Notes: generated from the sequence alone by a model not told the origin. 64,000 nt of DNA from an uncultured Gammaproteobacteria bacterium (GCA_964415515.1 CAYQAP010000002.1:28443-92442), one strand, 5' to 3'. Numbered from the stretch's first letter, positions 2,007 to 58,417 are shown. Translations and numbers: made by a program.

Positions 2007-2026
2007 GAATAGGTGTACCGGCTATA

Positions 2027-4181: not shown

Positions 4182-4190
4182 ACTAAAATG
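4182..4190. repeat. Right copy of putative 9-bp target-site duplication (ACTAAAATG)
   Basis: Directly abuts the right IR. Matches 8/9 with 3427..3435. A 9-bp duplication is the size produced by IS50/Tn5-type elements. Confidence 0.6.
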
Positions 4191-4207
4191 ACATAAAGGA
4201 CATTCAC

Positions 4208-5772: not shown

Positions 5773-5776
5773 ACAA

Positions 5777-10213: not shown

Positions 10214-10295
10214 TCTGCAATGAACTCTTCTGCTTTTAACCACCCCATTAGCGCCTGCCCATGACACTGATCTCACTATTCAGGGAAATTTTGCA

Positions 10296-12364: not shown

Positions 12365-12388
12365 CAGGGTGAAAATCCCTGCTAACCA

Positions 12389-13117
12389 TTACAGACCAAA
12401 ATGTACCGCACTGATAGCTGCTGGCATCTCCTGAAAAAGCCTCACTGCTACCCCTTCTCCGGCGTGCTGACAAACCATATCAAACGCAGCTTGCAATCGT
12501 GGTGGTCGATGCACTAGGTTGTGTGCATCTGTAGCCACCACATCAATCCAGCCACGTTCCAGCATTTGCAGTGCTCGCTTTTTTGCATAAGGTCCAAATC
12601 CTCCAGTAATAGAGCGCGCAGTCACTTGCAGCATTGCCCCTGCTTCCCTAATCGGTTCAATTTTTTCCAGATGGGTCAAAACAGCTTTATTTCGTTCGGG
12701 ATGAGCGACCAGTGGCCTGATGTTATGTGACAATAAATATTTAATAAATTTTACTGTGCCTGGCAAAATCATTGAGTGAGGAAATTCCAGCAGCAGGATT
12801 TTATAGCCACCCAGCTTACCCAAAAAAGGGATTTTATTGCCGGCAATCATGGTCATGACCTGTGGATCAATTCGAACCTCGGCCGCAAAAGCAATGCGCA
12901 ATGGGATGCTGCGTGCTAACAGCGCTTGCTGCAGAATCGTATAAGCCGCCTGTATCGAATGGACGTCATTATCGTACCGATTCAAATGAATATGTGGTGT
13001 GATCACTGAGTGGGTAATACCGTCTTCGACAGCAATTTCCACCAACTTCAGCGCATCATCCAGATCGACTGCACCATCGTCGATACCTGGCAAAAGATGG
13101 CTATGTAAATCGATCAT
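12389..13117 (-). CDS. PHP-family protein-tyrosine phosphatase (CpsB/CapC type)
   Basis: The ORF extends to 13153. The internal start MIDLHSHLLPGIDDGA mirrors the S. pneumoniae CpsB N-terminus (MIDIHSH...DDG). Further His-rich metal motifs are present (TPHIH, AHPERN, ATDAHN). Confidence 0.85.
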   Translation of the reverse strand: MIDLHSHLLPGIDDGAVDLDDALKLVEIAVEDGITHSVITPHIHLNRYDNDVHSIQAAYTILQQALLARSIPLRIAFAAEVRIDPQVMTMIAGNKIPFLGKLGGYKILLLEFPHSMILPGTVKFIKYLLSHNIRPLVAHPERNKAVLTHLEKIEPIREAGAMLQVTARSITGGFGPYAKKRALQMLERGWIDVVATDAHNLVHRPPRLQAAFDMVCQHAGEGVAVRLFQEMPAAISAVHFGL

Positions 13118-13258
13118 ATCACTCGGCAGATTAATTAATAACCAGGGAGACATCCTGAATGTGGAGTTTTTGCTATCAACCCCTTAAGCTGCTTTCAGCA
13201 TAGCAGTCGGTCAACCAGCTGAACAGCCCAGTTTTATCGGTATCGATCGAACTTACGA

Positions 13259-15481
13259 TCAGTCATGGTGATAACCCTCATAGGAACCATAATAGCCATA
13301 ATTATAATTGTAGTAACCTTTGTCACTCTTGCCTTGATCATGCGGAATGTCATTGAGTATTCCGCCGATAATATTGGCACCAATGCGACGTAAGCGTTTG
13401 AGGCCTTCCCGAACGGCCGGAATCGGAGTAGACTCAGATTTGACCACATAGATCACACCACTGGATTTGCTAGCCACTACCAAAGAATCACTTACGGCCA
13501 ATGTTGGTGCAGTGTCAATCACAATGGTGTCAAAGACCTTGCTAAAGGTCTCGAGCATTGCACCGAAACGTTTAGAGGAAAGAAGGGCAACCGGGTTGGG
13601 GGGGATTATCCCGGATGGCATCACATGAATATTGCTGTCATCAATTCGATGTATGCATTTACTGATAGTTGCTATACCAGATACATATTCGGATAAGCCC
13701 GGAGCTTTAGAATCAATACTCCACACTTTAGCTACTGTAGGGCGGCGCATATCGGCATCAATCAGCAGTACTTTGGCAAACTCCGCCAGTGAACTGGCAA
13801 GGCTCCCAGAGATAGAGCTCTTACCTTCCCCAGGTACCGAAGAGGTCACCATGATCACCTTGTAAGGATTGTCCAGACTGGAAAGCAACATCCCGGCACG
13901 GATAGTCCTGATTGATTCTGAATAGTAGGACTGCTGGTGCTCCTGCATATAATTGATTGGGTTTTCACCCGCATTCGTTTTTAATTTCAAGTGCGGTAAA
14001 GTGCCCAATTCGGTCATCTGCAGACGACCCTCCAGATCACCCGTACGACGCAATGTATTATCAAGATGCTCATGCAGGAAAGCCACGAAAATACCAAAAA
14101 ATAATCCCAGGATAGTCGCAATAGAAATAATCAATCCTTTCTTGGGTTTGATCGGCTTCAATGCCGGAACTGCAGGATCGGCAATTCTTGCGCCGGGTTT
14201 GATCAGACCCGTTTGCTTGGTTTCCTTGGAGCGATTTAGAAATAATTCAAACAGCTTTTTATTCGATGCCACATCCCGCATCAGCACACCCAACTGATAA
14301 CTTTTACGACTGGTGGACTGAATAGTGTTCTTGGCAGAATTGATTGCTGACAGCAGGGATTGCTCACTGGTTTTAGCAACTTGATAACTTTTCTGAATAC
14401 TTTCCAGGACCACTCGAACCCGTCGATCGACCGCAATCTTGGCGGCCTTGAGGTCGGCCTTGGCCTGAATTAATTTTGGATGCTTGGGCCCATATCGTTT
14501 GCGCAGGGTTTGTAGATTGCGTTGTGAAACTTCTTCAACCTGCTTTAATTTCCCTAGCAACTGATCATTCAGGACTGCAGGCAGGGTACTCAATTTTTCA
14601 ATTGACCCGCCTTTGAGCCTTTTTACCTGCCGCAGTGCAGTTTCAGCTTCCACCCGTTTCTGGCGAGTCAGTATTAATTTGGTTTGCAATTCCTGAAGCT
14701 GCCTGGAATCGAGCGCCCCTACATCATTGGATTCAAGTAAACCCTGTTTTTCACGGTATTGCTGTAATGCAGTTTCAGACTCCTGCAACTTGTTTTTTAA
14801 TGTTTTCAGGCGATCATCCAGCCAAGTGGAAGCCAGTGTGGTTAGTTGCAACTTGGCATCCATATCATTTTCGATATAAGCCTGAGCCAGTGAGTTGACA
14901 ATTTGAGCAACCAAATTTCGATCGTTGGCCTCAAAACTGATCTTTACCAACTGGCTGGAATTGATGGGAATGACCTGAATACGTTGTGTGACTTGATTCA
15001 CCGTTTTCTCAAAGGTCATATTCGCATTGGCTGGTGGTTTGGCAGTTAGTGATGCAGGTAGCCATGTTGGAAGCCAGCTGCGCCAGTCAAAATCAACCAA
15101 CGGTTTCTTACGATCGACAAATTCCGGATTATTGGTCAACTGCAATTTCTTAACAACCTGTCCAACCAGTTTTCTGGATTTAAGTAGTTCATACTGGGTC
15201 CGAAAATAATCATTCCCCCCTAAGCCGTAGACCTCCTTGATGGAAACCACATTATTCTTGTCTGGAGAAATCAGGAGTATTGCAGACGATTGGTAGATAG
15301 GCTTCATGGAGTAAACAACCAACGTCGCCAAAATAGCAATCATCAGGGTCAGTGTAAGAATACTCCACCGGTGTCGCTTAATGACCTGACCGTACTCACG
15401 AAGGTTCAGCTCACCCTCGTCAGATTTGAGCACAGTTGCAGTCTCGTTCTGCTTTATCTCAGTCAATCTTGCTGTCCTCAC
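13259..15481 (-). CDS. wzc: Polysaccharide co-polymerase / tyrosine autokinase (Wzc-type BY-kinase)
   Basis: 740 aa with a GTG start. Two TM segments flank a long coiled-coil periplasmic domain. The C-terminal P-loop domain has SSVPGEGKSS, LLIDADMRRP and IVIDTAP, followed by a Tyr-rich tail GYYNYNYGYYGSYEGY. Confidence 0.9.
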   Translation of the reverse strand: MRTARLTEIKQNETATVLKSDEGELNLREYGQVIKRHRWSILTLTLMIAILATLVVYSMKPIYQSSAILLISPDKNNVVSIKEVYGLGGNDYFRTQYELLKSRKLVGQVVKKLQLTNNPEFVDRKKPLVDFDWRSWLPTWLPASLTAKPPANANMTFEKTVNQVTQRIQVIPINSSQLVKISFEANDRNLVAQIVNSLAQAYIENDMDAKLQLTTLASTWLDDRLKTLKNKLQESETALQQYREKQGLLESNDVGALDSRQLQELQTKLILTRQKRVEAETALRQVKRLKGGSIEKLSTLPAVLNDQLLGKLKQVEEVSQRNLQTLRKRYGPKHPKLIQAKADLKAAKIAVDRRVRVVLESIQKSYQVAKTSEQSLLSAINSAKNTIQSTSRKSYQLGVLMRDVASNKKLFELFLNRSKETKQTGLIKPGARIADPAVPALKPIKPKKGLIISIATILGLFFGIFVAFLHEHLDNTLRRTGDLEGRLQMTELGTLPHLKLKTNAGENPINYMQEHQQSYYSESIRTIRAGMLLSSLDNPYKVIMVTSSVPGEGKSSISGSLASSLAEFAKVLLIDADMRRPTVAKVWSIDSKAPGLSEYVSGIATISKCIHRIDDSNIHVMPSGIIPPNPVALLSSKRFGAMLETFSKVFDTIVIDTAPTLAVSDSLVVASKSSGVIYVVKSESTPIPAVREGLKRLRRIGANIIGGILNDIPHDQGKSDKGYYNYNYGYYGSYEGYHHD

Positions 15482-15725
15482 ACATACAAGACGTAGTGCT
15501 TAAAAAAACATGCAATACGGCGCACCCAAAAATTTTCGAGATATCACCCCACCAGTGTAGCAAACTATTCACAGCCACCCATCCTGCCACTATGGCCTCA
15601 AACAAGCAAAATCTTGAATTAACTTTAGTTCTTCAGTGCAGTTTATTGTTTTTACTTGACCATTGCAATACGACAAACTTGTCAGTCAAAGAAAGCTGGC
15701 ACAGTAGCCCCAAGCCTATTGGGCA

Positions 15726-16301
15726 TTAGAAGAAGCTACGCTTCACAGTGATCACGTCACCAGGTGTTACCAGGGCACTTAATGTAACCTTGGCAGGAGT
15801 AGCGTCAGGAGTTTTACCGGGAACCACAACAATATTTTCCCGATCAGCACGCTCATTGAACCCGCCGGCCAGGGCAATGGCCTTACGAACTGTCATTCCG
15901 GGCTGAAACGGGTAACCACCTGGTATCTTTACCCAGCCGTTGACATAGAAATTACGATACTGCAGTAAGGATACCGTGACAATAGGATCCACCAAATAAG
16001 GGCCTTTGAGCGTGTCGGTGACGAACTTCTCCAGTTCCGCAGCCGTCATGCCCTGGACCTTGATCGCACCGAGAAATGGATAGGAAATTGTTCCACTATC
16101 ACTGACCAAGGTTTCGATGGTCATATCCGGCTCACCGAGCACCTGTATCTTGATTTTATCACCAGCACCAAATTTGTACTCGGTTTGTGCATCAGCTGAT
16201 GTTGAAAATACCAGAAACATAAATGCTAACAACAGGATAAACCCACTACTGATGAAGCCAGAATTGCTGTAGAACAACCACCTTGTTCGATCCACGGTCA
16301 A
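15726..16301 (-). CDS. Polysaccharide export protein, short Wza/EpsE-like (Poly_export + SLBB)
   Basis: 191 aa with a TTG start and a signal-like N-terminus ending STSADA. GDKIKIQV, YPFLGAIKVQGMTAAELE, YVNGWVKIPGGYPFQPGMTVRKAIALAGG. Confidence 0.8.
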   Translation of the reverse strand: MTVDRTRWLFYSNSGFISSGFILLLAFMFLVFSTSADAQTEYKFGAGDKIKIQVLGEPDMTIETLVSDSGTISYPFLGAIKVQGMTAAELEKFVTDTLKGPYLVDPIVTVSLLQYRNFYVNGWVKIPGGYPFQPGMTVRKAIALAGGFNERADRENIVVVPGKTPDATPAKVTLSALVTPGDVITVKRSFF

Positions 16302-16477
16302 AGCACCTGAGTCACTATGATTTCACTCCCGATACCACATTAATTATTGCTCTGATTTAATAGTACCTATCAGGACCATACCCCCGATACAGATTAATAT
16401 TCTCCCAAGCCAATATAGCAGATCTCTATGCTTGGTGTTGTGCTCTATCGTGTGTCCGAGAATATCTGTTTTCATCT

Positions 16478-17875
16478 TCAGTAAGCATTCTTGCCAGTAA
16501 AGCCCCGAAAAACTGTCATCACGATTATTTTCATGTCCAGCCAAGTGCTCCAGTTCTGGATATACCAGAGATCACACTTGATTCGCTCTTCCATCTTGTC
16601 CTGAGTTTGTGTTTCCCCACGCCAGCCATTAACCTGAGCCCAGCCGGTAATCCCAGGCCTTACCGCATGACGCAACATATAGCCTTTGATTCGCAAGCGA
16701 TAATACTCGTTATGTACGACCGCATGGGGTCTGGGCCCTACAATCGACATTGTACCGGCCAGGACATTAAAAAGCTGGGGGAGTTCATCTAGCGAAGTCC
16801 GGCGGATAAAAGCGCCGACTCTGGTCACTCTCGGATCGTTACGTACTGCCTGTGTTACGATACGATCGTTCTCTCGTGTTGTCATGCTGCGAAACTTCCA
16901 TACCGTAAATTCTTTGCCATCCATCCCATAACGCTTCTGTCTGAATAGCACCGGACCTGGAGAGCTGATTTTTACCGCCACTGCTATCATCAGCATGACC
17001 GGGCTGATAAGGATCAGAATCAACATCGATAACACCATATCCTGCACTCGCTTCAGAAACAGTGCTGCGCCTGTAAACGGAGTTTGAAAGACACTAACCA
17101 TAGAAATGTCATCGAGTGCCTGCCATTGTTGCCCATGAAACAAGTTGAAGGTAAACAAATCCGGGATTATAAATACAGATGCCGTGGTATCGGATAATGC
17201 GCTGAGCAACTCAACAATACGCTTTTTGGCATTGATCGGTAACGCAATATAGATCTGATTAACTTCCCCATTTCGGGCTTTCTCGATTATCGTCTCGAAA
17301 TTACCATCAATCTCGCAGGATGAATTGATCCGTTTTTGTGCAGGCTTTCGGTCATCATAAATACCAAGCAAATCATAGCCGAAATTAGGATGACGCTGGA
17401 TGGCCTTCACCAGATGCATACCCGCATCACTTGCACCCAGGACCGCAACTTTTTGCCGATCATACCCTTTACTACGGGCATAGTACATGATGGTGCGGGT
17501 CAGCCTGCGCCACAGCAACATCGGTACCGGTGTGACAATAAACCAAAAAACTGTCGCCAGACGAGAAAAATTCTCACTCTGTTTGGTGGCATACAAACCA
17601 ACCAACAATACCAACGCTGCAATCACCCAGGTGGTAGTAACCAGCGTGGCCTCGTAAGCAAAGGGAATATTACGCCAAGATCGATAAAGATTGAGCACCT
17701 CTGCGACAATCAGGAAAATTGCAACTGCAACAATATCGAGAAAAATATAGAGTGGTTTATTGGCCACATAGGAATAGGCTTGCAAGGCCACCTGCAAAGA
17801 CAAGTAGATGGCCAGCGCATCAAACAATTTGAAAAGTGCGGACACCAGCAATGACTGATTGTGCTCGCTATTCAT
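16478..17875 (-). CDS. Polyprenyl-phosphate hexose-1-phosphate transferase (WcaJ/WbaP-type priming glycosyltransferase)
   Basis: 465 aa. N-terminal TM bundle, central Rossmann-like region, and a C-terminal bacterial sugar transferase domain (PGPVLFRQKRYGMDGKEFTVWKFRSM, DELPQLFNVLAGTMSIVGPRP). Confidence 0.9.
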   Translation of the reverse strand: MNSEHNQSLLVSALFKLFDALAIYLSLQVALQAYSYVANKPLYIFLDIVAVAIFLIVAEVLNLYRSWRNIPFAYEATLVTTTWVIAALVLLVGLYATKQSENFSRLATVFWFIVTPVPMLLWRRLTRTIMYYARSKGYDRQKVAVLGASDAGMHLVKAIQRHPNFGYDLLGIYDDRKPAQKRINSSCEIDGNFETIIEKARNGEVNQIYIALPINAKKRIVELLSALSDTTASVFIIPDLFTFNLFHGQQWQALDDISMVSVFQTPFTGAALFLKRVQDMVLSMLILILISPVMLMIAVAVKISSPGPVLFRQKRYGMDGKEFTVWKFRSMTTRENDRIVTQAVRNDPRVTRVGAFIRRTSLDELPQLFNVLAGTMSIVGPRPHAVVHNEYYRLRIKGYMLRHAVRPGITGWAQVNGWRGETQTQDKMEERIKCDLWYIQNWSTWLDMKIIVMTVFRGFTGKNAY

Positions 17876-18079
17876 GCTTTCAATGGCCTCACAGGTTATA
17901 AATCAGCGTATCGGCTACCTCCTCAACCGACAGTATAGATCAAAAAACCGACTATTTGAGCAGCATCTACTTCTGTGATCTGCCAAGTTATGGGTCAACA
18001 GTGGCCAACTCACAACTGTGGCCAATTTTTCATCCAGCAGCTAAAATAGCCTCCCCACACCGAACATCCTCCTGTGAAC

Positions 18080-24336: not shown

Positions 24337-25995
24337 TTATCGCAACAACAAGTTGATTTTTGCAGGTGTTTTGTTAGCCGCAATGCGCAATTTCCGCCAA
24401 CACTGCAAACCAGCCAACATGAGCCAGCTGCCGAGCAGTAACAGTACAGCGTACAACAATTCATGCGGCTGCCAGTAATCCGTGTGTTGCAATAAGCCCT
24501 GCAAACCGGCCCATTGTCCTACGCCCCACACCAGCAACCCCATGCTGAGCGCAAGTCCGCCAGCACGTTGTTGGCGCGATAATGCCAGCCCAATCATCAC
24601 CAACAATCCAGCTGATACCAAAGCACTCGCAACACCCCACGCCACCCACAATGCGGTAAGACCATGGCCGGGTAGTATAAACAATGCCAGACCTGCCGTG
24701 AATGCCGTCAACAGCAAAGAGGACAAACGAAAACTGTGGTTTGCCATGTTTTTTATCGCGTCGTTGAGTAATATTCTTTGACCACGAAGCCCAGCCTGCA
24801 GTGCCGCCATAAGCAAGACGATTGCGGTAAATCCGGCAAACCCCAAGCTGCTGGCACTGGAAATACCCAACTGACTGATCAGATCAGCCACCTGAGCTAA
24901 AGCACCTGAAAAAGCATATTGCAGGCTTTGTTGGGACTGCCAGGACAACGCCGTGCTCTGGGCATCACCAACGCCGATCATGACCAACCATATCAAGCCT
25001 GCCAGAACAGCTACCGTGATACCGACATAGCTGTGTAATGGGGTCATACGTTGTTGGGTTCGGGTACTCCCCACCACAGAAATCATATACCAGGCTCCGA
25101 AAGTGACCGCTGGTAAACTGATCAGTAGCCCGGGCAATATAGGGACAGGGGCCACTGTGGTGATACGCGGTATCACCATGATTGCCGAAATTGTCAGCAT
25201 ACCTAGCATTGCAGACAACAGCAGCAGCATACACAGGACACCGACAGCCAATCGATACCGTACCACCGCCTCATGGCCCTGACGTAACATCAATCCATAC
25301 AACATCACCAGTATGAACAACCAGAGGGTTGAGGGTTGCACCACAAACTGAGTATCACCACTGCCGAGCAAATAAATTTCTCCCACCAAACGCAACGGCA
25401 AGATACTGGCAATCGGTAACAGCAGCAGCCATAATACTGCCAGCACGATGATCGAACCGGTGTCTGAGCGCCACAATCGCGTCTTTCTCAACACTACAAA
25501 AGGCACCCAATGCAACAGCACCAGGCTGGCTGCAACCGGGAATAACGCCATAAGCTGACTCGCCACAACCAACAGCAGGACATGAATCAGCGTCGCTGCA
25601 ATCTGTAATAACAGCGCCATAGACCTGGACCCATGCCGGCCTAGCAAATCCTTGCTGACCGCTGCGAACCCATCCAGTGGATAACGACCATCAAGAAAAT
25701 GCAACCCTGCAGCAGTCATCCCGCAAACCCCAAGTCCACCCACCAGCAACCACAACGCCACCGGCCCCCACCCCCAAAACGAAGCCAGAGGAATACTGAC
25801 CAGTAACCCGCCACCCAGTAAAAGAACCGTTTGGTTAACGGTGCAAACCACGGCAGCGCGACCACCAGGGGCAGCAATGGCTCTCGGCAGCAATGTTGTG
25901 GCAGGAAAAAACCAGCGGCCGAGAAAACGGCCCAGAAAGTGCCAACCGACCCCGACCAATAACAACATAACCGCTAGCATCCACCACGGACTCAC
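24337..25995 (-). CDS. Hypothetical polytopic inner-membrane protein (~14 TM), family not recognised
   Basis: 552-aa ORF (GTG start; alternative ATG at 25980), hydrophobic throughout and Leu/Gly/Ala/Trp-rich. It ends 48 nt upstream of hemA on the same strand. Confidence 0.6.
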   Translation of the reverse strand: MSPWWMLAVMLLLVGVGWHFLGRFLGRWFFPATTLLPRAIAAPGGRAAVVCTVNQTVLLLGGGLLVSIPLASFWGWGPVALWLLVGGLGVCGMTAAGLHFLDGRYPLDGFAAVSKDLLGRHGSRSMALLLQIAATLIHVLLLVVASQLMALFPVAASLVLLHWVPFVVLRKTRLWRSDTGSIIVLAVLWLLLLPIASILPLRLVGEIYLLGSGDTQFVVQPSTLWLFILVMLYGLMLRQGHEAVVRYRLAVGVLCMLLLLSAMLGMLTISAIMVIPRITTVAPVPILPGLLISLPAVTFGAWYMISVVGSTRTQQRMTPLHSYVGITVAVLAGLIWLVMIGVGDAQSTALSWQSQQSLQYAFSGALAQVADLISQLGISSASSLGFAGFTAIVLLMAALQAGLRGQRILLNDAIKNMANHSFRLSSLLLTAFTAGLALFILPGHGLTALWVAWGVASALVSAGLLVMIGLALSRQQRAGGLALSMGLLVWGVGQWAGLQGLLQHTDYWQPHELLYAVLLLLGSWLMLAGLQCWRKLRIAANKTPAKINLLLR

Positions 25996-29443: not shown

Positions 29444-29518
29444 TGGGGCGTAGCCAAGTGGTAAGGCACCGGATTTTGATTCCGGCATTCCCAGGTTCGA
29501 ACCCTGGCGCCCCAGCCA
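29444..29518 (+). tRNA. tRNA-Gln (anticodon UUG)
   Basis: 75-nt cloverleaf folded by hand. Acceptor TGGGGCG/CGCCCCA, anticodon stem CCGGA/TCCGG with loop TTTTGAT, T-arm CCAGG-TTCGAAC-CCTGG, encoded CCA. Confidence 0.93.
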
Positions 29519-29751
29519 TTTATCCACAATACGTTGTACTTTGGAGTCGATAAGAAATAACATGGGCTATCTACATCCACCCCTCACCCCGGCTTGCCGC
29601 GCTGCTCAAGCACCACAATACTCAATGTGGAACCACCATATTTTGTCTTTCACTCCATCGCATTACGATACTCTGACACAAATACTGGCGCCTCATGGTC
29701 TGTATTGTTTCTTCATGACTCCTTTGCATAAATCCGTATAACGGGAAAGCC

Positions 29752-35812: not shown

Positions 35813-36931
35813 TCAGTTACTCTCGATCTTCAGATTACCGAACATGACATGGAAGAACGGCATACCGAACATTCTGCCTGCTGCCATCTCTTCCTGGACA
35901 TGTTTCTTGGTTTTACCCATCAGCTTCTTGGCGTCCATCAGCCTGGCCGCGGCTGCTTTCTTGGCCGGCCCATCGGGCATGGCCATGATTTTCTTGTTGG
36001 CCTTCATGATACTGGCCTTGACCTGCGGGAAAGGGATATAACCACTTTTCAGCGGTGCAGGAGCCAGGCCTTTGGGAGTCACCTTGAACGGCGGCACCAT
36101 CAGATGAAGCACTTTGCCGGTACTGCCTGCTCCCACATCACCATCAAAACCCAACTTATTGCCGTCACCACGCACAAACTCGGTGATCATCATATGTACG
36201 AGCTGATTGTCATTGACCAGTCGACCATCCGAATAGATCTTGCCGATCCCCCAGAAAGCAGCATAGGTGTATTCCGTAGGCATCAAATTGGTCCCAATAC
36301 CGGTCACACCATGCAACAAGATATCGGTGACCACACCACCAAAGGTTGGGAACAGCTTGCCATGGGGCATGGGCTTGTCGACCACGACCCGGTAGGTATG
36401 GGATTTATCCGGTGCATCAAAGGTGGCCTCAAAACTGATTTTGTCTTCCGTAACCTTACCGTCGATGGCAGTCACATCTTTCAGGGTCATAGTAAGATCC
36501 CCGACACCGACCACCATCCAGTCACTGAACGGCGTGGCATGGTCGGCAATGGTGTATTTGCCATCACGCTGCTGGCGCAATTTCAAGGAGACTCCCGTCA
36601 ACGGAAAAGGCCCCTGCTGCCAGCCATTCGGGTGCTTGGGATCACCGAAAACTGCAGGGTCCATAGCCCGGGGCCCGGGTAAAGCCCAGCGAATCGAGCC
36701 TTGTTTTTGTGAGGCGGTCACCGTCACAGTGCCCCCCAGGCGCCGTGGTGGGGTGGGGTTCTTGGCATGGGACTGGGTATAGGCGCCCAGTCCAACCATG
36801 GGTGCCTTGGCGGCCGCCATTTTGTCGTCCTGTGTCGTTCCCGCTGTGGCACAGCCAGCCACCAATAACACTGTGGAAGCTGCCGCCACAACCCGAGATA
36901 GTCGTCTTGTCGGAAGTGCTGTAGTTTTCAT
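35813..36931 (-). CDS. Hypothetical Tat-signal lipoprotein with His/Met-rich motifs, family not recognised
   Basis: The ORF extends to 37030. The likely start MKTTALPTRRLSRVVAAASTVLLVAGC combines a twin-arginine motif and a lipobox. The mature ~345 aa contain no Cys. HMM, HLM, HVM and MAMP-type motifs are concentrated toward the C-terminus. Confidence 0.6.
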   Translation of the reverse strand: MKTTALPTRRLSRVVAAASTVLLVAGCATAGTTQDDKMAAAKAPMVGLGAYTQSHAKNPTPPRRLGGTVTVTASQKQGSIRWALPGPRAMDPAVFGDPKHPNGWQQGPFPLTGVSLKLRQQRDGKYTIADHATPFSDWMVVGVGDLTMTLKDVTAIDGKVTEDKISFEATFDAPDKSHTYRVVVDKPMPHGKLFPTFGGVVTDILLHGVTGIGTNLMPTEYTYAAFWGIGKIYSDGRLVNDNQLVHMMITEFVRGDGNKLGFDGDVGAGSTGKVLHLMVPPFKVTPKGLAPAPLKSGYIPFPQVKASIMKANKKIMAMPDGPAKKAAAARLMDAKKLMGKTKKHVQEEMAAGRMFGMPFFHVMFGNLKIESN

Positions 36932-37134
36932 AACATTCCTCTGTCTGTTGGTCTTTGCATATAGGATTACTTGCGTTGGGAGATCGGTAATGTTGCAACC
37001 TGCCGCTGTGGCCCGGATACCCTGAGACACACAAAACAGCTTAGGATTCGAACCTCCCTCCGCACGCTATAGACCGTACCGGACCCACTAAGTTCCTGCA
37101 CTGTCTAAAAGGGTCATTCAAAGCAGCCAGAAAA

Positions 37135-42945: not shown

Positions 42946-43434
42946 CTACTGCAAAAGCGGAGGGATTTCCTCGACTTTTCCGGTCACAATTTCCTGGGTT
43001 GAGGCCTTGCGAATCGCCTTGACTGTGACTTCATAGTGAATATTCTTGCCCGCTAGGGGATGGTTGGCATCTACAGTAAGCGAGTCGGCAGTTATTTCAA
43101 CCACACGAAAGTGCATAACTTTACTGTCCGCATTCTCCGCTTCAAACTCCGTGCCCAACTGTCGCAGATCTTCCGGGACATTCTCGATCGAATCAGTAAA
43201 AGTCAGACCCGGGTCATGCGGTCCAAATGCTTCATCCGCGGTCAAATCAACTGTCACACTATCTCCCACCTGGCAGCCTTCCAGGCTGGCTTCAAGCTTG
43301 GGAAATAATTCCCCTTTACCGCCATGTACGTAGTCCACTGGCAAATCACGGTATTCGAGCAACTGTCCCTGCTCGTCCCTGATGGAATAACCGATCGATA
43401 CGACCGTGGCGGGGCCGACGCGCTGTGTAATCAT
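42946..43434 (-). CDS. FKBP-type peptidyl-prolyl cis-trans isomerase (SlyD/FkpB-like, no His-rich tail)
   Basis: 162 aa. VSIGYSIRDEQGQLL..., insert-in-flap region, DANHPLAGKNIHYEVTV. Confidence 0.8.
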   Translation of the reverse strand: MITQRVGPATVVSIGYSIRDEQGQLLEYRDLPVDYVHGGKGELFPKLEASLEGCQVGDSVTVDLTADEAFGPHDPGLTFTDSIENVPEDLRQLGTEFEAENADSKVMHFRVVEITADSLTVDANHPLAGKNIHYEVTVKAIRKASTQEIVTGKVEEIPPLLQ

Positions 43435-50557: not shown

Positions 50558-51436
50558 TTAGTGAATTCGTGCCAAAATTCCTTCCAGCTCTTCCAGACTG
50601 TGGTATTCAATCATCAACCGACCTTTTTTTGGTCCATGCTGGATACGCACCCGGGCCTGGATACGCTCGGATAATGTCGTTTCCAGATGACGAATATCCG
50701 TATCATACGCATGATTTTCACCGGGTTGGTTTCCTGGTCCGGCTGCAGACAACAGTTGCTGTACCAGCTTCTCTGTGGCCCGGACCGACAGGTCCTTGCG
50801 AACAACCTGGCGTGCTATCACCAAGCGCTGTGCTTCGGGCAAGCCCAACAACGCTCTGGCATGACCCATATCGAGTTGCCCCTGCTCCACCAGTTCCCGG
50901 ATCTCCCGCTGGAGTGCCAACAAGCGCAGTAAGTTGCTAATCTGGGCCCGAGAGCGACCCAGGTAATTGGCAATCTGCTGATGGGTCAGCTTGAATTCAT
51001 CAATCAATCGCGAAATACCTGTGGCCTCCTCAATGGGGTTAAGGTCTTCTCTTTGGATATTTTCAATCAAGGCCATCGCCACTGCCGCCTCATCAGCGAC
51101 TTCCCGCACCAGCACCGGAACCTGTTCCAGACCGGCCAGTTGAGCCGCTCGCCAACGACGCTCTCCAGCAATAATTTCATACGCTCCTGTGCCCAGCTGT
51201 CGAACCAGTATCGGCTGGATGATGCCCTGTGCCCGGATCGATAGAGCCAGGGTCTGCAAAGCATTATCATCCATATGACTGCGTGGCTGGTAGCGCCCGC
51301 GCTGTAATTGTTCTATCGGCAGCTGCGACAAGGTATGATCCGGGATCAAACCAGAATCATTTTTCGAAGAGGCTTCCCCGAGCAGTGCATCAAGCCCTCT
51401 ACCCAAGCGGTTTTTGGTGAGGCGTTTGGCGTTCAT
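50558..51436 (-). CDS. parB: Chromosome partitioning protein ParB
   Basis: 292 aa. LGRGLDALL, QPRSHMD, IIQPILVR, YEIIAGERRWRAA. Confidence 0.95.
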   Translation of the reverse strand: MNAKRLTKNRLGRGLDALLGEASSKNDSGLIPDHTLSQLPIEQLQRGRYQPRSHMDDNALQTLALSIRAQGIIQPILVRQLGTGAYEIIAGERRWRAAQLAGLEQVPVLVREVADEAAVAMALIENIQREDLNPIEEATGISRLIDEFKLTHQQIANYLGRSRAQISNLLRLLALQREIRELVEQGQLDMGHARALLGLPEAQRLVIARQVVRKDLSVRATEKLVQQLLSAAGPGNQPGENHAYDTDIRHLETTLSERIQARVRIQHGPKKGRLMIEYHSLEELEGILARIH

Positions 51437-52197
51437 TGACGTTCCCCTTGTAAAACTTCAGTGGCCAACGCCCGATAAGCCACGGCACCGGCACAGTTCT
51501 TATCATAGTGAATAACCGGTCTTCCATAGCTTGGGGCCTCGGCCAGGCGAACATTGCGTGGGATTACGGTGCGGTACAACTTCCTGCCATAGTGTTTTTC
51601 CAATTGTTCCGACACCTCATTGGTCAGAGAATTGCGTGGATCAAACATGGTCCGCAACAACCCTTGTATCCGGATTGTTGCATTCAGCTTCTGCCGCACC
51701 CGCCTGACAGAAGTCACCAATGCACTTAACCCTTCCAGTGCATAATACTCACATTGCATCGGGATCAATACAGCTGAAGCAGCTACCAACGCATTCACGG
51801 TCAATAAGTCCAGGGCCGGAGGACAATCGATCAGAATGAAATCATAGTGCCCGTGAATGGTCTGCAAGGCTTGTTGCAGGCGCTTTTCACGCTGTGTCGC
51901 CTGTACCAATTCAATCTGAGACCCGGCCAGGTCGCGGGTCGCCGGCAACAGTGCAAAGCCCCACTCCAATGATATGACTGCTGCGGCCACAGATGAATTT
52001 CCCAGCAACACCTCGTAGACTGTTGCTGCCAGATCCGCACCCAGCACACCACAACCTGTGCTGGCATTGGCCTGTGGGTCAAGATCCACCAGCAGCACCC
52101 GCTGCCCCACGGCGGCCAGTGTGGACGCCAAGTTGATACTTGTGGTGGTTTTACCAACACCCCCCTTCTGGTTGGTAATGGCGATAATTTTACCCAT
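51433..52197 (-). CDS. parA: Chromosome partitioning ATPase ParA (Soj)
   Basis: 254 aa. Deviant Walker A NQKGGVGKTT. ATGA overlap with parB. Confidence 0.95.
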   Translation of the reverse strand: MGKIIAITNQKGGVGKTTTSINLASTLAAVGQRVLLVDLDPQANASTGCGVLGADLAATVYEVLLGNSSVAAAVISLEWGFALLPATRDLAGSQIELVQATQREKRLQQALQTIHGHYDFILIDCPPALDLLTVNALVAASAVLIPMQCEYYALEGLSALVTSVRRVRQKLNATIRIQGLLRTMFDPRNSLTNEVSEQLEKHYGRKLYRTVIPRNVRLAEAPSYGRPVIHYDKNCAGAVAYRALATEVLQGERQ

Positions 52198-52217: not shown

Positions 52218-52862
52218 TCAAGCACGTACCAGTATCAGCAAACGACGATCGGCTGCCACACCAGGTACCGATAAAACAATATTGTGCTGCAATTGCCAGC
52301 CTCCAGGCAACTCCTTTAACTCCCTGTCAATCGGCCAGTTTTTCAAAGCCAACACCCGCCCCTGTGCGCTGCATAAATGCCCGGAATACTCCAGCAACCT
52401 CGACAAGGGGGCAACAGCGCGGGCAGTAAGCGTATCAAATTCTTCTTCGGGCTGGTATTGTTCTACACGTGCCGTGATCACCACCACATTCGCTAGTCCC
52501 AGCTCCGTTACTGCCTGTTGCAGAAAGCGAGTACGTTTGCTCCGACTGTCCAGCAGAAAAAAATCGTGTTCGGGCCGCATGATTGCCAGCGGTATTCCCG
52601 GCAGCCCCGCCCCACTGCCAATATCCAGTACCCGCCGACCTGCCAACCAAGGCAGCAGCGGGAGACTGTCGAACAGATGCCGATATACCATTTGTTGTGG
52701 TACGGTCACTGCAGTTAGATTGACTGTACGACTCCAGCGTTGCAGCAGTCGTAAAAACAGCAGCAGCTGCTGCTGTTGCAGCACCGAGGAAACAATGCCG
52801 AGCTGCTGCAGACCCGTGCCCAAGCTGTCGGCTGCCTGCTGCCAGGCCGCTTCAGGCTTCAT
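52218..52862 (-). CDS. rsmG: 16S rRNA (guanine527-N7)-methyltransferase
   Basis: 214 aa. DIGSGAGLPGIPLAI. Conserved position upstream of parA. Confidence 0.92.
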   Translation of the reverse strand: MKPEAAWQQAADSLGTGLQQLGIVSSVLQQQQLLLFLRLLQRWSRTVNLTAVTVPQQMVYRHLFDSLPLLPWLAGRRVLDIGSGAGLPGIPLAIMRPEHDFFLLDSRSKRTRFLQQAVTELGLANVVVITARVEQYQPEEEFDTLTARAVAPLSRLLEYSGHLCSAQGRVLALKNWPIDRELKELPGGWQLQHNIVLSVPGVAADRRLLILVRA

Positions 52863-53650
52863 GGGTGAGCCACATCAACAAGAACAACGGTAATATTGTC
52901 CCGGCCTCCGGCCAAGTTGGCCAAATCCAGCAACCGATACACCGCCGTCTTGGCATCTTTAATAGTGGCCAAAGCAAGCGCGATTTCCCTGTCCTCAAGC
53001 ATGTCATGAAGACCGTCCGTGCACAAAATATAGCGATCCCCCGCCAACATTGGGTGATGGCCAACCTCGGCCCGAGCCCTGGCCTCGGTTCCCAGTGCCC
53101 GAGTAATGATGTTGTCCCCCACAGCGGCTGCAGCCTCCACAGGTGAACAGATGCCCTGATCGATTAGCTGCTGTCGCAAAGTGTGGTCACGGGTCAATGG
53201 TGTCAAGGTCGATTGCCGCCATCGATACAAACGGCTGTCCCCGATATGTGCCAACCACAGATTCTGAGCGTGGAATACTGCTGCCACAGCAGTCGTTGCC
53301 ATACCCTGGCAGTCTGCGTCCTGTCTGGCGGTGTCAAGGATGGCATGGTTTGCGGCATTCATCGCCGCCTCCAGAATATTGTTCACTGCTCCGGGCCAGC
53401 GTCCTCCCGCAGTCCGCCATTGATTAGCAAGACTGCGGACAATTTGACTGGTTGCCACGGCGCTGGCCACTTCGCCAGAACGATAGCCGCCAACCCCGTC
53501 AGCGATGACCGCCAGGCCCATCTCGGGGAGCCAGGCCGAACTGTCCTCATTGTGGTCACGTAACTGGCCAACATGGCTTGCCTGGACTGCTGAGAAGCTC
53601 AATATGGATGGAGACAACCCAGTTACGGCATCGTAATGCGGCGTATTCAT
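52859..53650 (-). CDS. PP2C-family (PPM) serine/threonine protein phosphatase
   Basis: 263 aa. GQLRDHNEDS, AVIADGVGGYRSGEVAS, LCTDGL, GGRDNITVVLV. The stop overlaps the rsmG start (ATGA). Confidence 0.88.
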   Translation of the reverse strand: MNTPHYDAVTGLSPSILSFSAVQASHVGQLRDHNEDSSAWLPEMGLAVIADGVGGYRSGEVASAVATSQIVRSLANQWRTAGGRWPGAVNNILEAAMNAANHAILDTARQDADCQGMATTAVAAVFHAQNLWLAHIGDSRLYRWRQSTLTPLTRDHTLRQQLIDQGICSPVEAAAAVGDNIITRALGTEARARAEVGHHPMLAGDRYILCTDGLHDMLEDREIALALATIKDAKTAVYRLLDLANLAGGRDNITVVLVDVAHP

Positions 53651-53754
53651 AGGATGGAATTGTACATCAATGTTGCCGGGTACTCTGTCACAACCCGGCT
53701 TTGCTGTAGAATCCTTCCTTTAGCAACCCGGTTCTGCTCATTCTACGTCTTCCT

Positions 53755-54462
53755 ATGTCTGATTCTTGTAAAATCTCTGTGATAATGCCGGTTCTCAATG
53801 AAGCGACCGTACTGAATAGTGCACTCCCCAAACTGATTCATGACCAATGTTTCAAGGAGGTCATCGTCGTTGATGGTGGCAGCACGGATTCAACGATCAC
53901 AATCGTAGAGAAATTTATTGCTGACCATCCTGACCTTGGCTTGCAACTGCTCCACTCGATTGTCGGTAGAGCGCGACAGATGAACGCCGGCGCTGCTGTG
54001 GCAAAATCACCGATCCTGTTATTCTTGCATGCTGACAGCCGTTTACCCACACACACAGTTCCAGCCATTTGTGCCACCTTGAATCGGCATAATTGGGGCT
54101 TTTTCCGGATCCGTATTGACAGCCCTCAGCTGCTATTGCGGGTAGCCAGTCAAATGATGTGCTGGCGTTCTGCGCTGACCTCAATCGCGACAGGAGACCA
54201 GGCTCTGTTCATCAAGACAGCACTTTTCCAGAGACTCGGTGGCTTTGCCACGATACCCTTGATGGAAGATATCGAACTGTGCCACCGGCTGAAGGGTACA
54301 GGCCGGCCTGCTTGCGTTCTGCGTCCGGTACAGACTTCTGCCCGCCGCTGGCAGTCCCATGGCATGGTACGAACCATTCTACTTATGTGGTCATTACGTT
54401 TTGCTTACTGGCGGGGTGTTGACCCTGCTACGTTGTCGCGCCGTTACCACCATGCCCGCTAA
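53755..54462 (+). CDS. Family-2 glycosyltransferase of the DUF2064-associated type (TIGR04283-like as recalled)
   Basis: 235 aa. ISVIMPVLNEA, VIVVDGGSTDST, GRARQMNAGA, LFLHADSRLP, GDQALF, PLMEDIEL, TSARRW. Confidence 0.8.
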   Translation: MSDSCKISVIMPVLNEATVLNSALPKLIHDQCFKEVIVVDGGSTDSTITIVEKFIADHPDLGLQLLHSIVGRARQMNAGAAVAKSPILLFLHADSRLPTHTVPAICATLNRHNWGFFRIRIDSPQLLLRVASQMMCWRSALTSIATGDQALFIKTALFQRLGGFATIPLMEDIELCHRLKGTGRPACVLRPVQTSARRWQSHGMVRTILLMWSLRFAYWRGVDPATLSRRYHHAR

Positions 54463-55138
54463 GCCCGGTACCCAACCGGAATCATCCGGGTCACCTCAAT
54501 TGCATATTCTGGCTCGTCAGCCTGTAGCAGGTTGCTGTAAAACACGCCTGGAGACACACTGCAGTGCTGAGCAGGCTGCGACTATTGCTGCTGTCTTATT
54601 GCAGGAAACCGTAGCCATCGCCTGCAGCGGCTGGTCAGGCGGGGTATTCCTGCATGGCTCACCGGATTGCCATCACCCACTATTTGCCAGCTTGGCTGCG
54701 CAGTATTCACTCAGCCTCGCCGACCAACAAGGGAAAGATCTGGGACAGATCCAGGCCAATGCGCTGGCGGTATCCCTGAATATTGGTCATGCGGCTGCAG
54801 TAATCGGTTGCGACCTGCCCGGCCTGGAAAAGCAGCTGTTGCAGGAGGCCTACAACCGCCTCCAGCAAGGGGAAGCCTTGCTTGGCCTGTCTCCAGATGG
54901 CGGATATTACTTGCTGGGAGTACCGCACTTGCCACCCGGGTTGCTGCAGCATATTCACTGGAGCAGTACTGAAGTCTCTTCACAGCTACTTCGCAATGCT
55001 CGGGCCTGTCATCTTAACATAGCCTGTGATCTACCTCTTATCAATGACGTCGACACCTGGCAGGATCTGCAGGCAGCGGTTGCTGCAAAACCAGGCCTGG
55101 GACAGCAGCTGCATGCCTGCCTGCCAGCGCTGTGGTAA
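54452..55138 (+). CDS. DUF2064 / CofC-MobA-like putative nucleotidyltransferase (TIGR04282-like as recalled)
   Basis: Internal ATG 54452 overlaps the GT2 stop by 11 nt. ILARQPVAGCCKTRL parallels the family motif AKAPxPGxVKTRL. IGCDLP and DGGYYLLG are further family-like motifs. Confidence 0.7.
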   Translation: MPAKPGTQPESSGSPQLHILARQPVAGCCKTRLETHCSAEQAATIAAVLLQETVAIACSGWSGGVFLHGSPDCHHPLFASLAAQYSLSLADQQGKDLGQIQANALAVSLNIGHAAAVIGCDLPGLEKQLLQEAYNRLQQGEALLGLSPDGGYYLLGVPHLPPGLLQHIHWSSTEVSSQLLRNARACHLNIACDLPLINDVDTWQDLQAAVAAKPGLGQQLHACLPALW

Positions 55139-56079
55139 AAGAGCCCAGGATGCCTCCGCCTGCTAAGACCGCTTCGACCCGGGCCTTGTTAGCCCCAGGT
55201 TACTGGCCAACCTGGCTGGGGCTAGGCTGCCTGCGCTTGCTCAGACTGCTGCCATTACCCGTATTGTGGGCCTTGGCCTCAGTGCCGGGTTATCTGTTGT
55301 ACGGGCTGATCTTCTCAAGGAGGCGTGTCGTGCTACGCAATCTTGAAACCTGTTTCCCAGACTGGAGTCGAAAACGGAGACAACAGGTAGCGCGCAAGCA
55401 TTTCCATTATGCTACCTTCATGCTGTTGCTTGAGGGTTACGTGTGGTGGGGCAGTCCGCAGCAGCTGCAACAGATCGGCCGGTTCCACAACCGTCAGTTC
55501 TACGATCAGGTCATTGCCCAGGGCCACAATATCATTTTACTCGTACCACATTTCCTGGGCTTGGAAATCGGTGGTTTGTTACTCGCACTGGAACGCCCTA
55601 TGAGCAGCATGTATCAGTACAGCAAAAATCAGCTGCTGGATAGGGTGGTGCATCAAGGTCGGACCCGTTTTGGTGGCCAGCTGATTGAACGCAAAGCCCC
55701 GCTGAACGTACTCATACGCAGCCTGCGCAGTGGCAAGCCGTTTTATTATTTACCGGACCAGGATGCCGGCCTCCGCAAAGGAGTATTCGCCCCTTTTTTC
55801 GGTACCCCAGCGGCCACTTACCCGCTGCTAGGAAAATTCGCCCGCTTGGGCAAAGCAACGATCATCCCTTGCTACACCCGATTGCTTGCGAAGGGCAAAG
55901 GTTTTGAGGTGGTTTTTTTACCCCCGCTGCAAAATTACCCAACCGGTGATGAATTGTCCGATACCACGACCATGAATGCGGTGATTGAACAAATGGCCAC
56001 AGCTGAACCCGAGCAGTATTTCTGGTTACACAAACGCTTCAAGACTCGCCCCCCCGGGGCAACGAAATTTTATACCTGA
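55132..56079 (+). CDS. LpxL/HtrB-family late (lipid A-type) acyltransferase
   Basis: 315 aa (GTG 55132, alternative ATG 55150). N-terminal TM anchor, LLVPHFLGLEIGG (H-x4-E/D region), YYLPDQDAG, FGTPAAT. Confidence 0.8.
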   Translation: MVKEPRMPPPAKTASTRALLAPGYWPTWLGLGCLRLLRLLPLPVLWALASVPGYLLYGLIFSRRRVVLRNLETCFPDWSRKRRQQVARKHFHYATFMLLLEGYVWWGSPQQLQQIGRFHNRQFYDQVIAQGHNIILLVPHFLGLEIGGLLLALERPMSSMYQYSKNQLLDRVVHQGRTRFGGQLIERKAPLNVLIRSLRSGKPFYYLPDQDAGLRKGVFAPFFGTPAATYPLLGKFARLGKATIIPCYTRLLAKGKGFEVVFLPPLQNYPTGDELSDTTTMNAVIEQMATAEPEQYFWLHKRFKTRPPGATKFYT

Positions 56080-56109
56080 GTGGCACCCAGGTAGAAACCC
56101 GGTGCTTGT

Positions 56110-57996
56110 TCATCCAGAGCTCTTTTTCAAATAGACCAACAGCAGCGATATCGCTGCTGGTGTAATACCCGGAATTCGGGCCGCCTGACCCAAGGTTCGC
56201 GGTTGCTGTTGTTGCAGCTTTTGTTGTACTTCAGCCGATAACCCCCGAACCTCAGAATACCTGAACTCTACCGGCAACTGCATTTGCTCATGCTGTTGAT
56301 GGCGCTCAATTTCCCGGTGTTGGCGTTGCAAATAACCCTCATAACGTGCTTTTATTTGCAATTGGGCAATCGCCTCAGAATCCTTAAGCCCGGGGTTAAA
56401 GCCCGGCAACATTCCCAAACCCTGGTAGTCGACTCCAGGGCGTTTGAGCAGCTCGAACAAATGTGCTTCACGTTTCAGGTGCTGACCAAACACTTGCTGT
56501 TGCACTTCATTCGGGATCTGTTCGGGGTGCACTACCGTAGCCCGCAGGCGCTTGACTTCCGCCGCCACCGCATCCCGCTTGTCACAAAAGCGCTGCCAGC
56601 GCTGATCATCCACCAGACCCAGCTCACGACCGATGGGTGTCAAGCGCAGGTCTGCGTTGTCCTCTCGCAGGCTCAGTCGATATTCGGCGCGGGAAGTAAA
56701 CATCCGATAAGGCTCAGAGGTCCCACGGGTAATAAGATCGTCGATCATGACCCCAATATAGGCTTGATCACGGCGCGGATACCAGGGGGCTTTCCCGGTC
56801 ACACGCAAGGCCGCATTGAGTCCGGCAATCAACCCCTGGCCGGCGGCTTCTTCATAGCCGGTTGTGCCGTTGATCTGGCCAGCAAAAAACAACTGCCGGA
56901 TGGCCTTGGTCTCGAGCCATGGCTCAAGATCACGTGGATCAAAATAATCGTATTCTATGGCATAGCCAGGCCGGGTGATGTGGGCCTGCTCAAATCCGGC
57001 AATGCTGCGTACGAACCGTAGCTGTATATCATAGGGCAGGCTGGTGGATATGCCATTGGGGTAGAGTTCAGTGGTCTCCAAGCCCTCCGGTTCTACAAAG
57101 ATCTGGTGCGAATCCCGATCAGAAAAACGCACCACCTTGTCCTCGATGGAGGGACAGTAACGTGGACCAACACCTTCAATCCTACCACTATACAGTGGAG
57201 AACGATCCAGGGCATTGCGGATCACTGCATGGGTTTCGGGATTGGTTTGGGTAATGTAACAGGGCACTTGCCGGGGATGATCGCTGGCCTGCCCCATAAA
57301 CGAGAATACCGGCACCGGCTTATCACCCGGCTGTACGGTCATCCGGGAAAAATCCACTGAACGGCCATCGATACGTGGCGGAGTACCGGTCTTGAGCCGA
57401 TCTACACGCAGCGACAATGCCCGCAAACGTTGCGCCAAAGCCTTGGCAGGCTGGTCTCCAGCCCGCCCGCCCGCATAGTGCGTCAACCCGATATGGATGA
57501 TTCCACCAAGAAATGTGCCGGTCGCCAACACTACGCAATAACCGCGTAAAATCAGGCCCAGTTCGGTCTTTACTCCGACCACTTTGCTGCCTTCAACAAC
57601 CAGATCTTCTACCGACTGCTGTAACACCTGCAAGCCAGCCTGGTGTTCCAGTTGCCACCGAATGTGGTGCTTGTAAAGTGCGCGATCCGTCTGTGCCCGT
57701 GTCGCCTGTACTGCAGGGCCTTTGCGGGCATTCAAGGTCCGCAACTGAATGCCGGCATGATCTGCCGCCTGTGCCATACTGCCACCCATGGCATCGATTT
57801 CCCGAACAATATGCCCCTTCCCGATACCACCAATCGCCGGATTACAGGACATCTGGCCCAGGGTTTCAATATTCTGACTGATTAAGAGTGTCTGTGCCCC
57901 TATTCGTGCAGCAGCCAGCGCTGCCTCTGTCCCGGCATGCCCACCCCCGACTACGATGACTTCGTAATTCTGTGAAACAGCTTGCTTGCCGCGCAT
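56110..57996 (-). CDS. mnmG: tRNA uridine 5-carboxymethylaminomethyl modification enzyme
   Basis: 628 aa. [16 protein letters not shown], full-length GidA. Confidence 0.96.
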
Positions 57997-58417
57997 TGTT
58001 CACCTTTTGCAGTACACAGGAGTAGTCACCGTTCGCCAGTAATTCCGGCATTAGCGGCAGTTCCTGTCGGCCAGGAGCCTGCAGGAGGAGTTGACTTGCT
58101 ATACCATTGTACGTAAATCTCTTGCTCGACGCACTCTCACATTGAGTTGCTACCCACTACAAGCTCCCACATTTCATAGCCAACCGATGATACTCGCCTT
58201 ACTGCCCCTCACAAAGCAACCATAAAATGCACTGCGTATCTCCGCCGGCAGAGAAGCTGATTCAATACACGGGTGATGTGCTCTGCCACAATGGCGTGCT
58301 ATGCTTATTGTTCTGTGCTTACCAGCTTGCAACACTGGCCGCAGCAATAACTTGGTGGGTAAAACGCAAACCGACTTCGCTACCCAGAACACTATAGCCT
58401 CCTTATAAGGATCCGGC

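Follow-up and report, generated by a model that had tools for sequence, protein, structure and literature searches.

The 64,000-nt stretch of DNA analyzed here (GCA_964415515.1, CAYQAP010000002.1:28443-92442; hereafter the window) comes from an uncultured gammaproteobacterium and carries a version of the mnmG-rsmG-parA-parB array in which mnmG and rsmG are separated by four genes. mnmG (gidA) occupies positions 56110..57996 on the minus strand, and rsmG (gidB), encoding the 16S rRNA m7G527 methyltransferase, lies 3,247 nt away on the same strand (52218..52862). A gene for a PP2C (PPM) Ser/Thr phosphatase of Stp1/PstP-like type (minus strand, 52859..53650) directly precedes rsmG. The remainder of the interval is filled by three genes on the opposite, plus strand, which encode a family-2 glycosyltransferase (GT2; 53755..54462), a DUF2064 protein (54452..55138, with an alternative TTG start at 54419 and a mechanically called open reading frame, ORF, from 54359) and an LpxL-like/LpxM-like late acyltransferase (55150..56079, alternative GTG start at 55132). 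As read from the sequence, the divergent PP2C and GT2 genes are 104 nt apart (53651..53754), and 30 nt (56080..56109) separate the convergent stop codons of the LpxL-like gene and mnmG. parA (minus strand, 51433..52197) follows rsmG after a 20-nt gap and is overlapped by 4 nt by parB (minus strand, 50558..51436); past parB, the atp operon and then glmU and glmS continue on the minus strand.

Family profiles assign all of these products to known groups. Over their full length, MnmG and RsmG score above the equivalog cutoffs of TIGR00136 (878.4 versus 524.85 bits; PF01134, 554 bits) and TIGR00138 (160.4 versus 99.5 bits; PF02527, 179 bits), respectively. The PP2C protein exceeds the cutoff for the PPM domain (PF13672, 57.1 bits versus a cutoff of 24) and falls short of the NF033484 Stp1/IreP equivalog cutoff (219.9 versus 230 bits). 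Both transferases lie above their family cutoffs, GT2 with 256.8 versus 182 bits for TIGR04283 (PF00535, 59.8 bits) and the DUF2064 protein with 138.5 versus 134 bits for TIGR04282 (PF09837, 74.4 bits). The LpxL-like protein matches PF03279 over its full length (236.6 bits) and stays under every NCBIfam equivalog or subfamily cutoff, TIGR02207, TIGR02208, and PRK08706 being among those checked; its best scores are 253.1 versus 384 bits and, for TIGR02207, 248.7 versus 297.8 bits. Thus, ORF calls and profile scores bear out the claim of an earlier note on this DNA that four genes stand between mnmG and rsmG, and the coordinates agree with the layout given there, i.e., a PP2C gene on the rsmG strand and a divergent GT2-DUF2064-LpxL-like trio that ends 30 nt from the mnmG stop. 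All six genes, from mnmG to rsmG, belong to well-known families, and it is their arrangement that is new.

The genes are tightly packed within each strand. In the window, the PP2C stop codon overlaps the rsmG start in an ATGA motif. On the other strand, the end of the GT2 gene is overlapped by the DUF2064 start by 11-44 nt, depending on the start chosen, and 11 nt lie between the DUF2064 stop and the ATG of the LpxL-like gene. As the three plus-strand genes overlap or are only 11 nt apart, they form one compact operon. mnmG is separated from rsmG and is probably monocistronic.

Searching with the PP2C protein returned five close relatives, with identities of 94, 72, 71, 69, and 68%, while the next match reached only 45%. 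The only taxon label that any of these relatives bears is "Gammaproteobacteria bacterium (MAG)", MAG standing for metagenome-assembled genome. The gene order mnmG | LpxL-like-DUF2064-GT2 | PP2C-rsmG-parA-parB-atp is shared by ten contigs from five further lineages (L002-L009, L096, and L097); the samples differ, and the assemblies are those of JGI, Logan, ENA, and NCBI. L006 and L097 are truncated contigs that show part of the order; both carry the GT2/PP2C and PP2C/rsmG junctions. Comparison of the encoded proteins with those of L002, L004, and L007, in this order, gave identities of 95, 79, and 78% for the LpxL-like protein, 93, 62, and 67% for the DUF2064 protein, 90, 64, and 70% for GT2, and 94, 72, and 69% for PP2C. 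The corresponding values are 90, 61, and 67% for RsmG, 96, 76, and 78% for ParB, 98, 80, and 82% for MnmG, and 99, 93, and 93% for AtpA. The inserted genes have thus diverged in step with their housekeeping neighbors, and the ancestor that these lineages share already had them at this site.

The junctions themselves vary in length to different degrees. PP2C and rsmG share 4 nt where the stop of one meets the start of the other in the window, L002, L004, and L007, and 1 nt in L097; in L096, the two genes abut without a gap. The convergent gap between the LpxL-like gene and mnmG ranges from 15 nt (L007) through 29 nt (L002) to 314 nt (L004). Measured between conserved starts, the divergent PP2C/GT2 spacer extends to 206 nt in L004 and about 475 nt in L007 (358 nt between called genes). 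The L007 spacer contains a 99-nt element (8871-8969) with an 87% identical copy between yicC and gmk in L008 (1902-1997). This element is probably a small dispersed repeat, which explains part of the larger spacer.

Outgroups were picked on an unbiased criterion, RsmG similarity. mnmG and rsmG are contiguous or overlapping in three of the five outgroup lineages, namely L012 (56% RsmG identity), L095 (51%), and L001, a Methylophilaceae MAG (45%) that was the one distant locus found when genome contigs were scanned with RsmG. In L011 (52%), a DUF302 gene lies between mnmG and rsmG. In L010 and L094 (52-54%), the region upstream of rsmG is replaced (L010 5421-7636; L094 4421-6636): a 526-aa AhpC/thioredoxin-NHL gene overlaps the rsmG start, prpBCD lies upstream of it, and no mnmG was found within 6-7 kb of rsmG. 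On these gene orders, the mnmG-rsmG junction is broken independently in two of the five outgroup lineages, and is hence conserved, not inviolable. The earlier note had called mnmG-rsmG a highly conserved array; this holds for the three lineages with contiguous genes and not for the two in which the junction is broken in other ways. It had also called for a synteny comparison with relatives, and this comparison finds the same order in six lineages, the window's included, and its absence from all five outgroup lineages. Within this sampling, the arrangement of the window is specific to its clade and absent from the nearest outgroups. Public MAG annotation already contains it without remark, and our literature search found no published description of an mnmG-rsmG pair split in this way. 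The earlier note had regarded a widespread arrangement, annotated as a conserved operon in the clade, as fatal to its proposal; the order is indeed conserved in the clade and annotated in public MAGs, and we found no paper that describes it.

The four genes have a GC content of 0.52-0.57 and a GC content at third codon positions (GC3) of 0.54-0.61, and in neither do they differ from mnmG, rsmG, parAB, and atpA. Around the four-gene segment, only short, imperfect repeats at chance level were found, and family scans detected no integrase, insertion sequence (IS), or other mobility protein among the four products or at the site. The sole tRNA gene of the window is 23 kb away, at 29444, and Rfam gave no match in the region at gathering thresholds. 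The host-like composition and the lack of IS, integrase, or repeat boundaries described in the earlier note therefore stand. A recently acquired island between mnmG and rsmG would account for the absence of the four genes from this position in all outgroups examined, and for the quite different neighborhoods of the GT2-DUF2064 pair and the PP2C gene in other taxa. Such an island is largely refuted by the host-like GC and GC3, by the absence of an integrase, IS, tRNA, or direct-repeat boundary, and by an order shared among six lineages whose divergence is proportional to that of the housekeeping neighbors; we consider it very unlikely. For the same reasons, a genomic island with defined boundaries was rejected: the segment has host composition, lacks mobility genes, a tRNA, and direct repeats, and is present in six lineages.

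Because the source is evidently a metagenome-assembled contig, an assembly or binning artefact in the form of a chimeric contig has to be weighed as well. In addition, L007 and L008 differ in the mnmG 5' flank despite being 99.96% identical otherwise, and there chimerism could be the cause. At the split itself, however, the mnmG/LpxL, GT2/PP2C, and PP2C/rsmG junctions recur in every contig long enough to contain them, eight besides the window. These eight come from four data sources and different assemblers and represent lineages down to 60-80% identity, and the genes overlap across the PP2C/rsmG junction. Since the same junctions occur in independent assemblies, chimerism at these joints is excluded, which makes an artefact exceedingly improbable.

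Taken together, these data make it very probable that the mnmG-rsmG-parA-parB-atp array was reordered long ago in one lineage, an uncultured clade of Gammaproteobacteria, and that the altered order in the window was inherited vertically. The same order in ten contigs, the neighbor-like divergence, and the lack of signs of mobility support the earlier note in reading the locus as an old or native rearrangement rather than a recent island. Its further proposal, a single insertion of four genes, did not find such support: the PP2C gene and the trio have different neighborhoods elsewhere, and the search turned up no intermediate state. The chance of two or more separate events is just short of even; for instance, PP2C may first have been captured upstream of rsmG, and the trio inserted independently or mnmG translocated beside it. 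Their opposite strands speak for separate arrivals, as do their unrelated partners in other taxa: PP2C occurs with a Hanks kinase and an FHA protein, and GT2-DUF2064 with an ArsS-like protein or a VTT-fused reductase and never with LpxL. The mnmG 5' flank is moreover prone to rearrangement in the clade, as seen from an IS fragment in L005 and from the differing flanks of L007 and L008. The six lineages, on the other hand, include no intermediate. Two or more events are equally as possible as one four-gene insertion, and the several-events reading is compatible with an old, inherited change of order, of which it refines only the history.

What the split would mean for transcription can be approached from Pseudomonas aeruginosa, where gidA-gidB-parA-parB form a single operon whose main promoter, under DnaA control, lies upstream of gidA in oriCII, with additional internal promoters (PMC13438810). 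Because gidAB-parAB are driven from upstream of gidA in P. aeruginosa, a physical break demands a new promoter, and with an operon of the opposite strand in between, mnmG can no longer serve rsmG-parAB by read-through. In the canonical gidAB-parAB layout, rsmG adjoins mnmG on one strand and a single promoter upstream of mnmG can serve all four genes; the window locus departs from it. mnmG would be transcribed alone, while rsmG-parA-parB would depend on a new promoter within the 104 nt between the divergent PP2C and GT2 genes, where the promoters of both units presumably lie. A candidate for this promoter is a conserved TGATGTACAAT element of the form TG-n-n-GTACAAT on the minus strand (53659..53669), the TACAAT box of which (53664-53659) lies 8 nt upstream of the PP2C ATG. 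In an alignment of the six lineages, the GTACA core does not vary and five of the six keep TACAAT (L096 has TACACT), 7-10 nt from the conserved PP2C ATG, whereas the rest of the spacer is poorly conserved and shows no Shine-Dalgarno sequence between the TACAAT box and the ATG. This suggests that TACAAT is a candidate -10 box, with a geometry that fits a leaderless or near-leaderless PP2C-rsmG-parAB mRNA. Its position, 53659-53664, is compatible with the PP2C promoter that the earlier note had proposed at about 53650-53750.

As the PP2C stop overlaps or abuts the rsmG start in all lineages, PP2C would be the leading cistron of PP2C-rsmG-parA-parB, translationally coupled to rsmG, and it probably heads the rsmG-parAB operon. 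Facing the other way, a promoter-like CTGTCA-16-TAGAAT sequence (plus strand, 53685..53712) precedes the GT2 operon. It was found by a consensus scan with 9 of 12 matches, a scan in which the total number of sites was not above shuffle expectation. Among the four lineages aligned, its TAGAAT is kept in the window, L002, and L004 and not in L007.

The PP2C protein aligns over its full length with the PstP structures 1txo and 2cm1 (E 1e-35). The motifs RxxNED, DGxGG, GDSR, DGL, and DN are intact and invariant in the protein alignment, so that the phosphatase is predicted to be catalytically intact. No Pkinase or FHA domain, which would mark a Hanks-type kinase or FHA partner, was found in the scanned ORFs of the 64-kb window. 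The nearest PP2C outside the clade (P0006, 44% identity) sits in a cluster of a CHASE2-Hanks kinase, PP2C, and FHA genes.

For the plus-strand trio, we propose an independent operon of the cell-envelope type. The GT2 N-terminus MSDSCKIS is kept in L004 and L007. The DUF2064 protein matches PDB entry 3cgx (E 5e-15) and is nucleotidyl- or glycosyl-transferase-like; a search for its homologues gave five proteins only, all but one from the clade. In the LpxL-like protein, the HX4E motif VPHFLGLE aligns with VPHFGTWE of Acinetobacter baumannii LpxM (5kn7, E 9e-19). With 78-95% identity within the clade, this protein is the slowest-evolving of the four inserted ones, which fits a housekeeping role in the envelope.

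To place the trio in a wider context, we scanned metagenomes with the GT2 alignment and obtained 80 loci (L013-L092) at 41-51% identity. Of these, 61 have room for a gene downstream of GT2, and in 54 it is DUF2064 that follows directly. Upstream of the pair, the most common of the recurrent neighbors is a VTT/DedA-fused pyridine-nucleotide-disulfide oxidoreductase of roughly 720 aa (17 of 70 loci), which in L013 is 52-67% identical to most other such fusions. An ArsS-like protein with Radical_SAM and DUF3641 domains is slightly rarer in this position (13 of 70). Other recurrent neighbors are DUF547 upstream (n = 5) and DUF3047 downstream (9 of 60). None of these usual neighbors occurs within the 64 kb of the window, whose ORFs include no radical SAM or DUF3641 protein, and neither rsmG nor mnmG was found near the pair in any of the 80 metagenomic loci. 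Fifty-two loci extend 1.7 kb or more downstream of the pair, and in none of them does an LpxL-like gene adjoin it; only in this clade, therefore, are the two transferases linked to an LpxL homologue. The sole match to the lpxL profile near the metagenomic pairs, in L031, scores 20 bits and lies about 4 kb off on the other strand. LpxL was accordingly rejected as a general partner of GT2-DUF2064.

Here the GT2-DUF2064 pair has probably been separated from the partners it usually has and become linked with a homologue of a lipid A late acyltransferase, and glycolipid or lipid A related biosynthesis would be the most likely role of the trio. NCBIfam names both transferase families after arsenosugar biosynthesis, which is an annotation name and not the result of an assay, and this label may cover only part of the biology of the pair. 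The library searched has no papers on DUF2064 and none that link arsenosugars with radical SAM proteins and glycosyltransferases, and TIGR04282 and TIGR04283 appear in incidental mentions only.

Several points weigh against this picture of an ancestral split with a new promoter and a new envelope operon. The nearest sampled outgroups are distant, with identities to the window proteins of about 78% for AtpA and about 66% for MnmG, and bracket the age of the event only loosely. With no intermediate arrangement among the six lineages, one arrival or several are both possible. The consensus promoter scan did not flag TACAAT, and the count of sites in this region is at chance level. A terminator scan found no intrinsic terminator in the 30-nt convergent gap, where read-through or antisense overlap is possible. 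The hairpins in this gap are weak and lack a U-tract (z -1.0 on the plus strand and -2.4 on the minus strand), and a terminator at this site was rejected. The proposed promoter, the start of a leaderless mRNA, and the limits of the operons are deduced from sequence. Finally, the LpxL-like gene may simply be the housekeeping lpxL of the genome.

The conserved overlap or abutment of PP2C and rsmG in all lineages, together with the conserved upstream element and the short, shared divergent gap, could also mean that the placement was selected for function. PP2C might dephosphorylate ParB, ParA, or components of RsmG-linked ribosome biogenesis, and co-regulation of the trio might couple envelope synthesis with chromosome segregation. 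The status of PP2C as an orphan, for which the 64-kb window offers neither a kinase nor an FHA gene, would fit a role of this kind, and in mycobacteria ParB is reported to undergo Ser/Thr phosphorylation. Yet an order kept over this divergence can be a matter of history alone, and a Pkinase gene lies near the locus, about 9 kb away, in L008 only. We therefore regard functional placement as unlikely.

The same holds for the bolder view that the arrangement is a functional innovation. Here, a leaderless, rsmG-parAB-coupled orphan PP2C would control ParA/ParB partitioning or 30S maturation by Ser/Thr phosphorylation, and the divergently co-regulated trio would represent an undescribed glycolipid or lipid A pathway that recruited the "arsenosugar" transferase pair to a late acyltransferase. 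What speaks for this view is conserved gene order only, and we likewise hold it to be improbable. An inherited change of gene order remains the reading that we prefer.

The mnmG 5' flank varies within the clade. In the window, a PilT/PilU-family ATPase gene (TIGR01420, 431.7 bits; the profiles used do not separate PilU from PilT) and an MscS channel gene, both on the plus strand, lie upstream of mnmG. The earlier note had described an opposite-strand pilU as replacing the usual mnmE-yidC-rnpA-rpmH continuation. A PilT/PilU-family ATPase gene is indeed there on the plus strand, but neither relatives nor outgroups, as far as inspected, have mnmE-yidC-rnpA-rpmH directly upstream of mnmG. L007 is 99.96% identical to L008 and L009 from 158 nt upstream of mnmG onwards; beyond that point (about 4300 in L007 and about 5273 in L008), L007 has pilT-mscS, whereas L008 has relA/spoT-rpoZ-gmk. 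In L005, a DDE-transposase fragment (4385-4723) lies beside mnmG, and pilT-mscS is inverted. Within the clade, this flank is a hot spot of rearrangement, and its differences could reflect strain variation or chimeric assembly.

In Escherichia coli, oriC adjoins mnmG. The 421-nt spacer between mnmG and pilT (57997-58417) contains neither TTATCCACA, allowing at most one mismatch, nor TTWTNCACA, and counts of DnaA boxes across the window are at chance level. No parS was found in the window, and GC skew is negative over all 64 kb with no change of sign. An oriC beside mnmG as in E. coli was hence rejected for the window, and the origin-proximal location assumed in the earlier note could not be confirmed from it. 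The window's only perfect DnaA box TTATCCACA (29520-29528) follows one base on from the tRNA-Gln gene (29444-29518); as a single box, it is consistent with chance.

Elsewhere in the window, positions 1-17900 hold a Wzx/Wzy-type exopolysaccharide or capsule cluster. Its genes encode an epimerase, two polysaccharide deacetylases, GT4s, WecG, an O-antigen ligase-like protein, CpsB, a Wzc-like kinase, Wza, and an initiating sugar transferase. The GC content of the cluster is 0.41-0.47 versus 0.50-0.55 in the rest of the window, and an ORF with a transposase DNA-binding domain lies inside it (3530-4168). Horizontal acquisition is more plausible for this cluster than for the mnmG-rsmG segment. Five ORFs of 162-552 aa have no Pfam match at E ≤ 1e-5, at 2037-3215 (-), 6949-8253 (+), 24337-25995 (-), 35813-37030 (-), and 42946-43434 (-). 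The one at 6949-8253, inside the polysaccharide cluster, may encode a flippase or polymerase.

The consequences of these findings lie mainly in comparative genomics, with modest value for follow-up work and low surprise for the specialist. The textbook mnmG-rsmG(-parAB) linkage is repeatedly broken among Gammaproteobacteria, in three ways among the six lineage groups sampled, and each break obliges rsmG-parAB to gain a new promoter and, in the present clade, a new leading cistron. The arrangement provides a clean synteny marker for an uncultured clade. The NCBIfam label "arsenosugar biosynthesis" on a pair that lacks a nearby ArsS and has an LpxL-like partner calls for caution in automated annotation, and this partner offers a small lead on the chemistry of the TIGR04283/TIGR04282 pair.

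Four known systems can be compared with the locus. With gidAB-parAB of P. aeruginosa and its counterpart in many Proteobacteria it shares the genes, their order, and their orientation, and the atp operon and glmUS come next, as they do in Gammaproteobacteria. It differs in that 3.2 kb, including an operon on the opposite strand, split mnmG from rsmG, that PP2C precedes rsmG, and that DnaA boxes upstream of mnmG are missing. The second system is the TIGR04283/TIGR04282 pair, listed by NCBIfam as arsenosugar biosynthesis glycosyltransferases and formerly as rSAM/selenodomain-associated transferases 2 and 1. The window genes resemble it in that both products score above the cutoffs and in the family-typical order of GT2 followed by DUF2064 with overlapping ends; in the window, however, the downstream partner is an LpxL-like acyltransferase, and the 64 kb contain no ArsS-like neighbor. 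This partner, in turn, resembles LpxL/LpxM (HtrB/MsbB) in its full-length PF03279 match and in the HX4E motif that aligns with A. baumannii LpxM, and differs from them in staying below all NCBIfam cutoffs and in sharing an operon with the GT2-DUF2064 pair. Lastly, the phosphatase is like the Stp1/PstP-type PP2Cs in its single-domain PPM fold, in its full-length alignment to the structures of PstP, tPphA, and Stp1, and in the conservation of all metal-binding and catalytic motifs. Unlike these, it has no adjoining Hanks kinase or FHA gene, scores just below the NF033484 cutoff, and is joined to the rsmG-parAB transcription unit.

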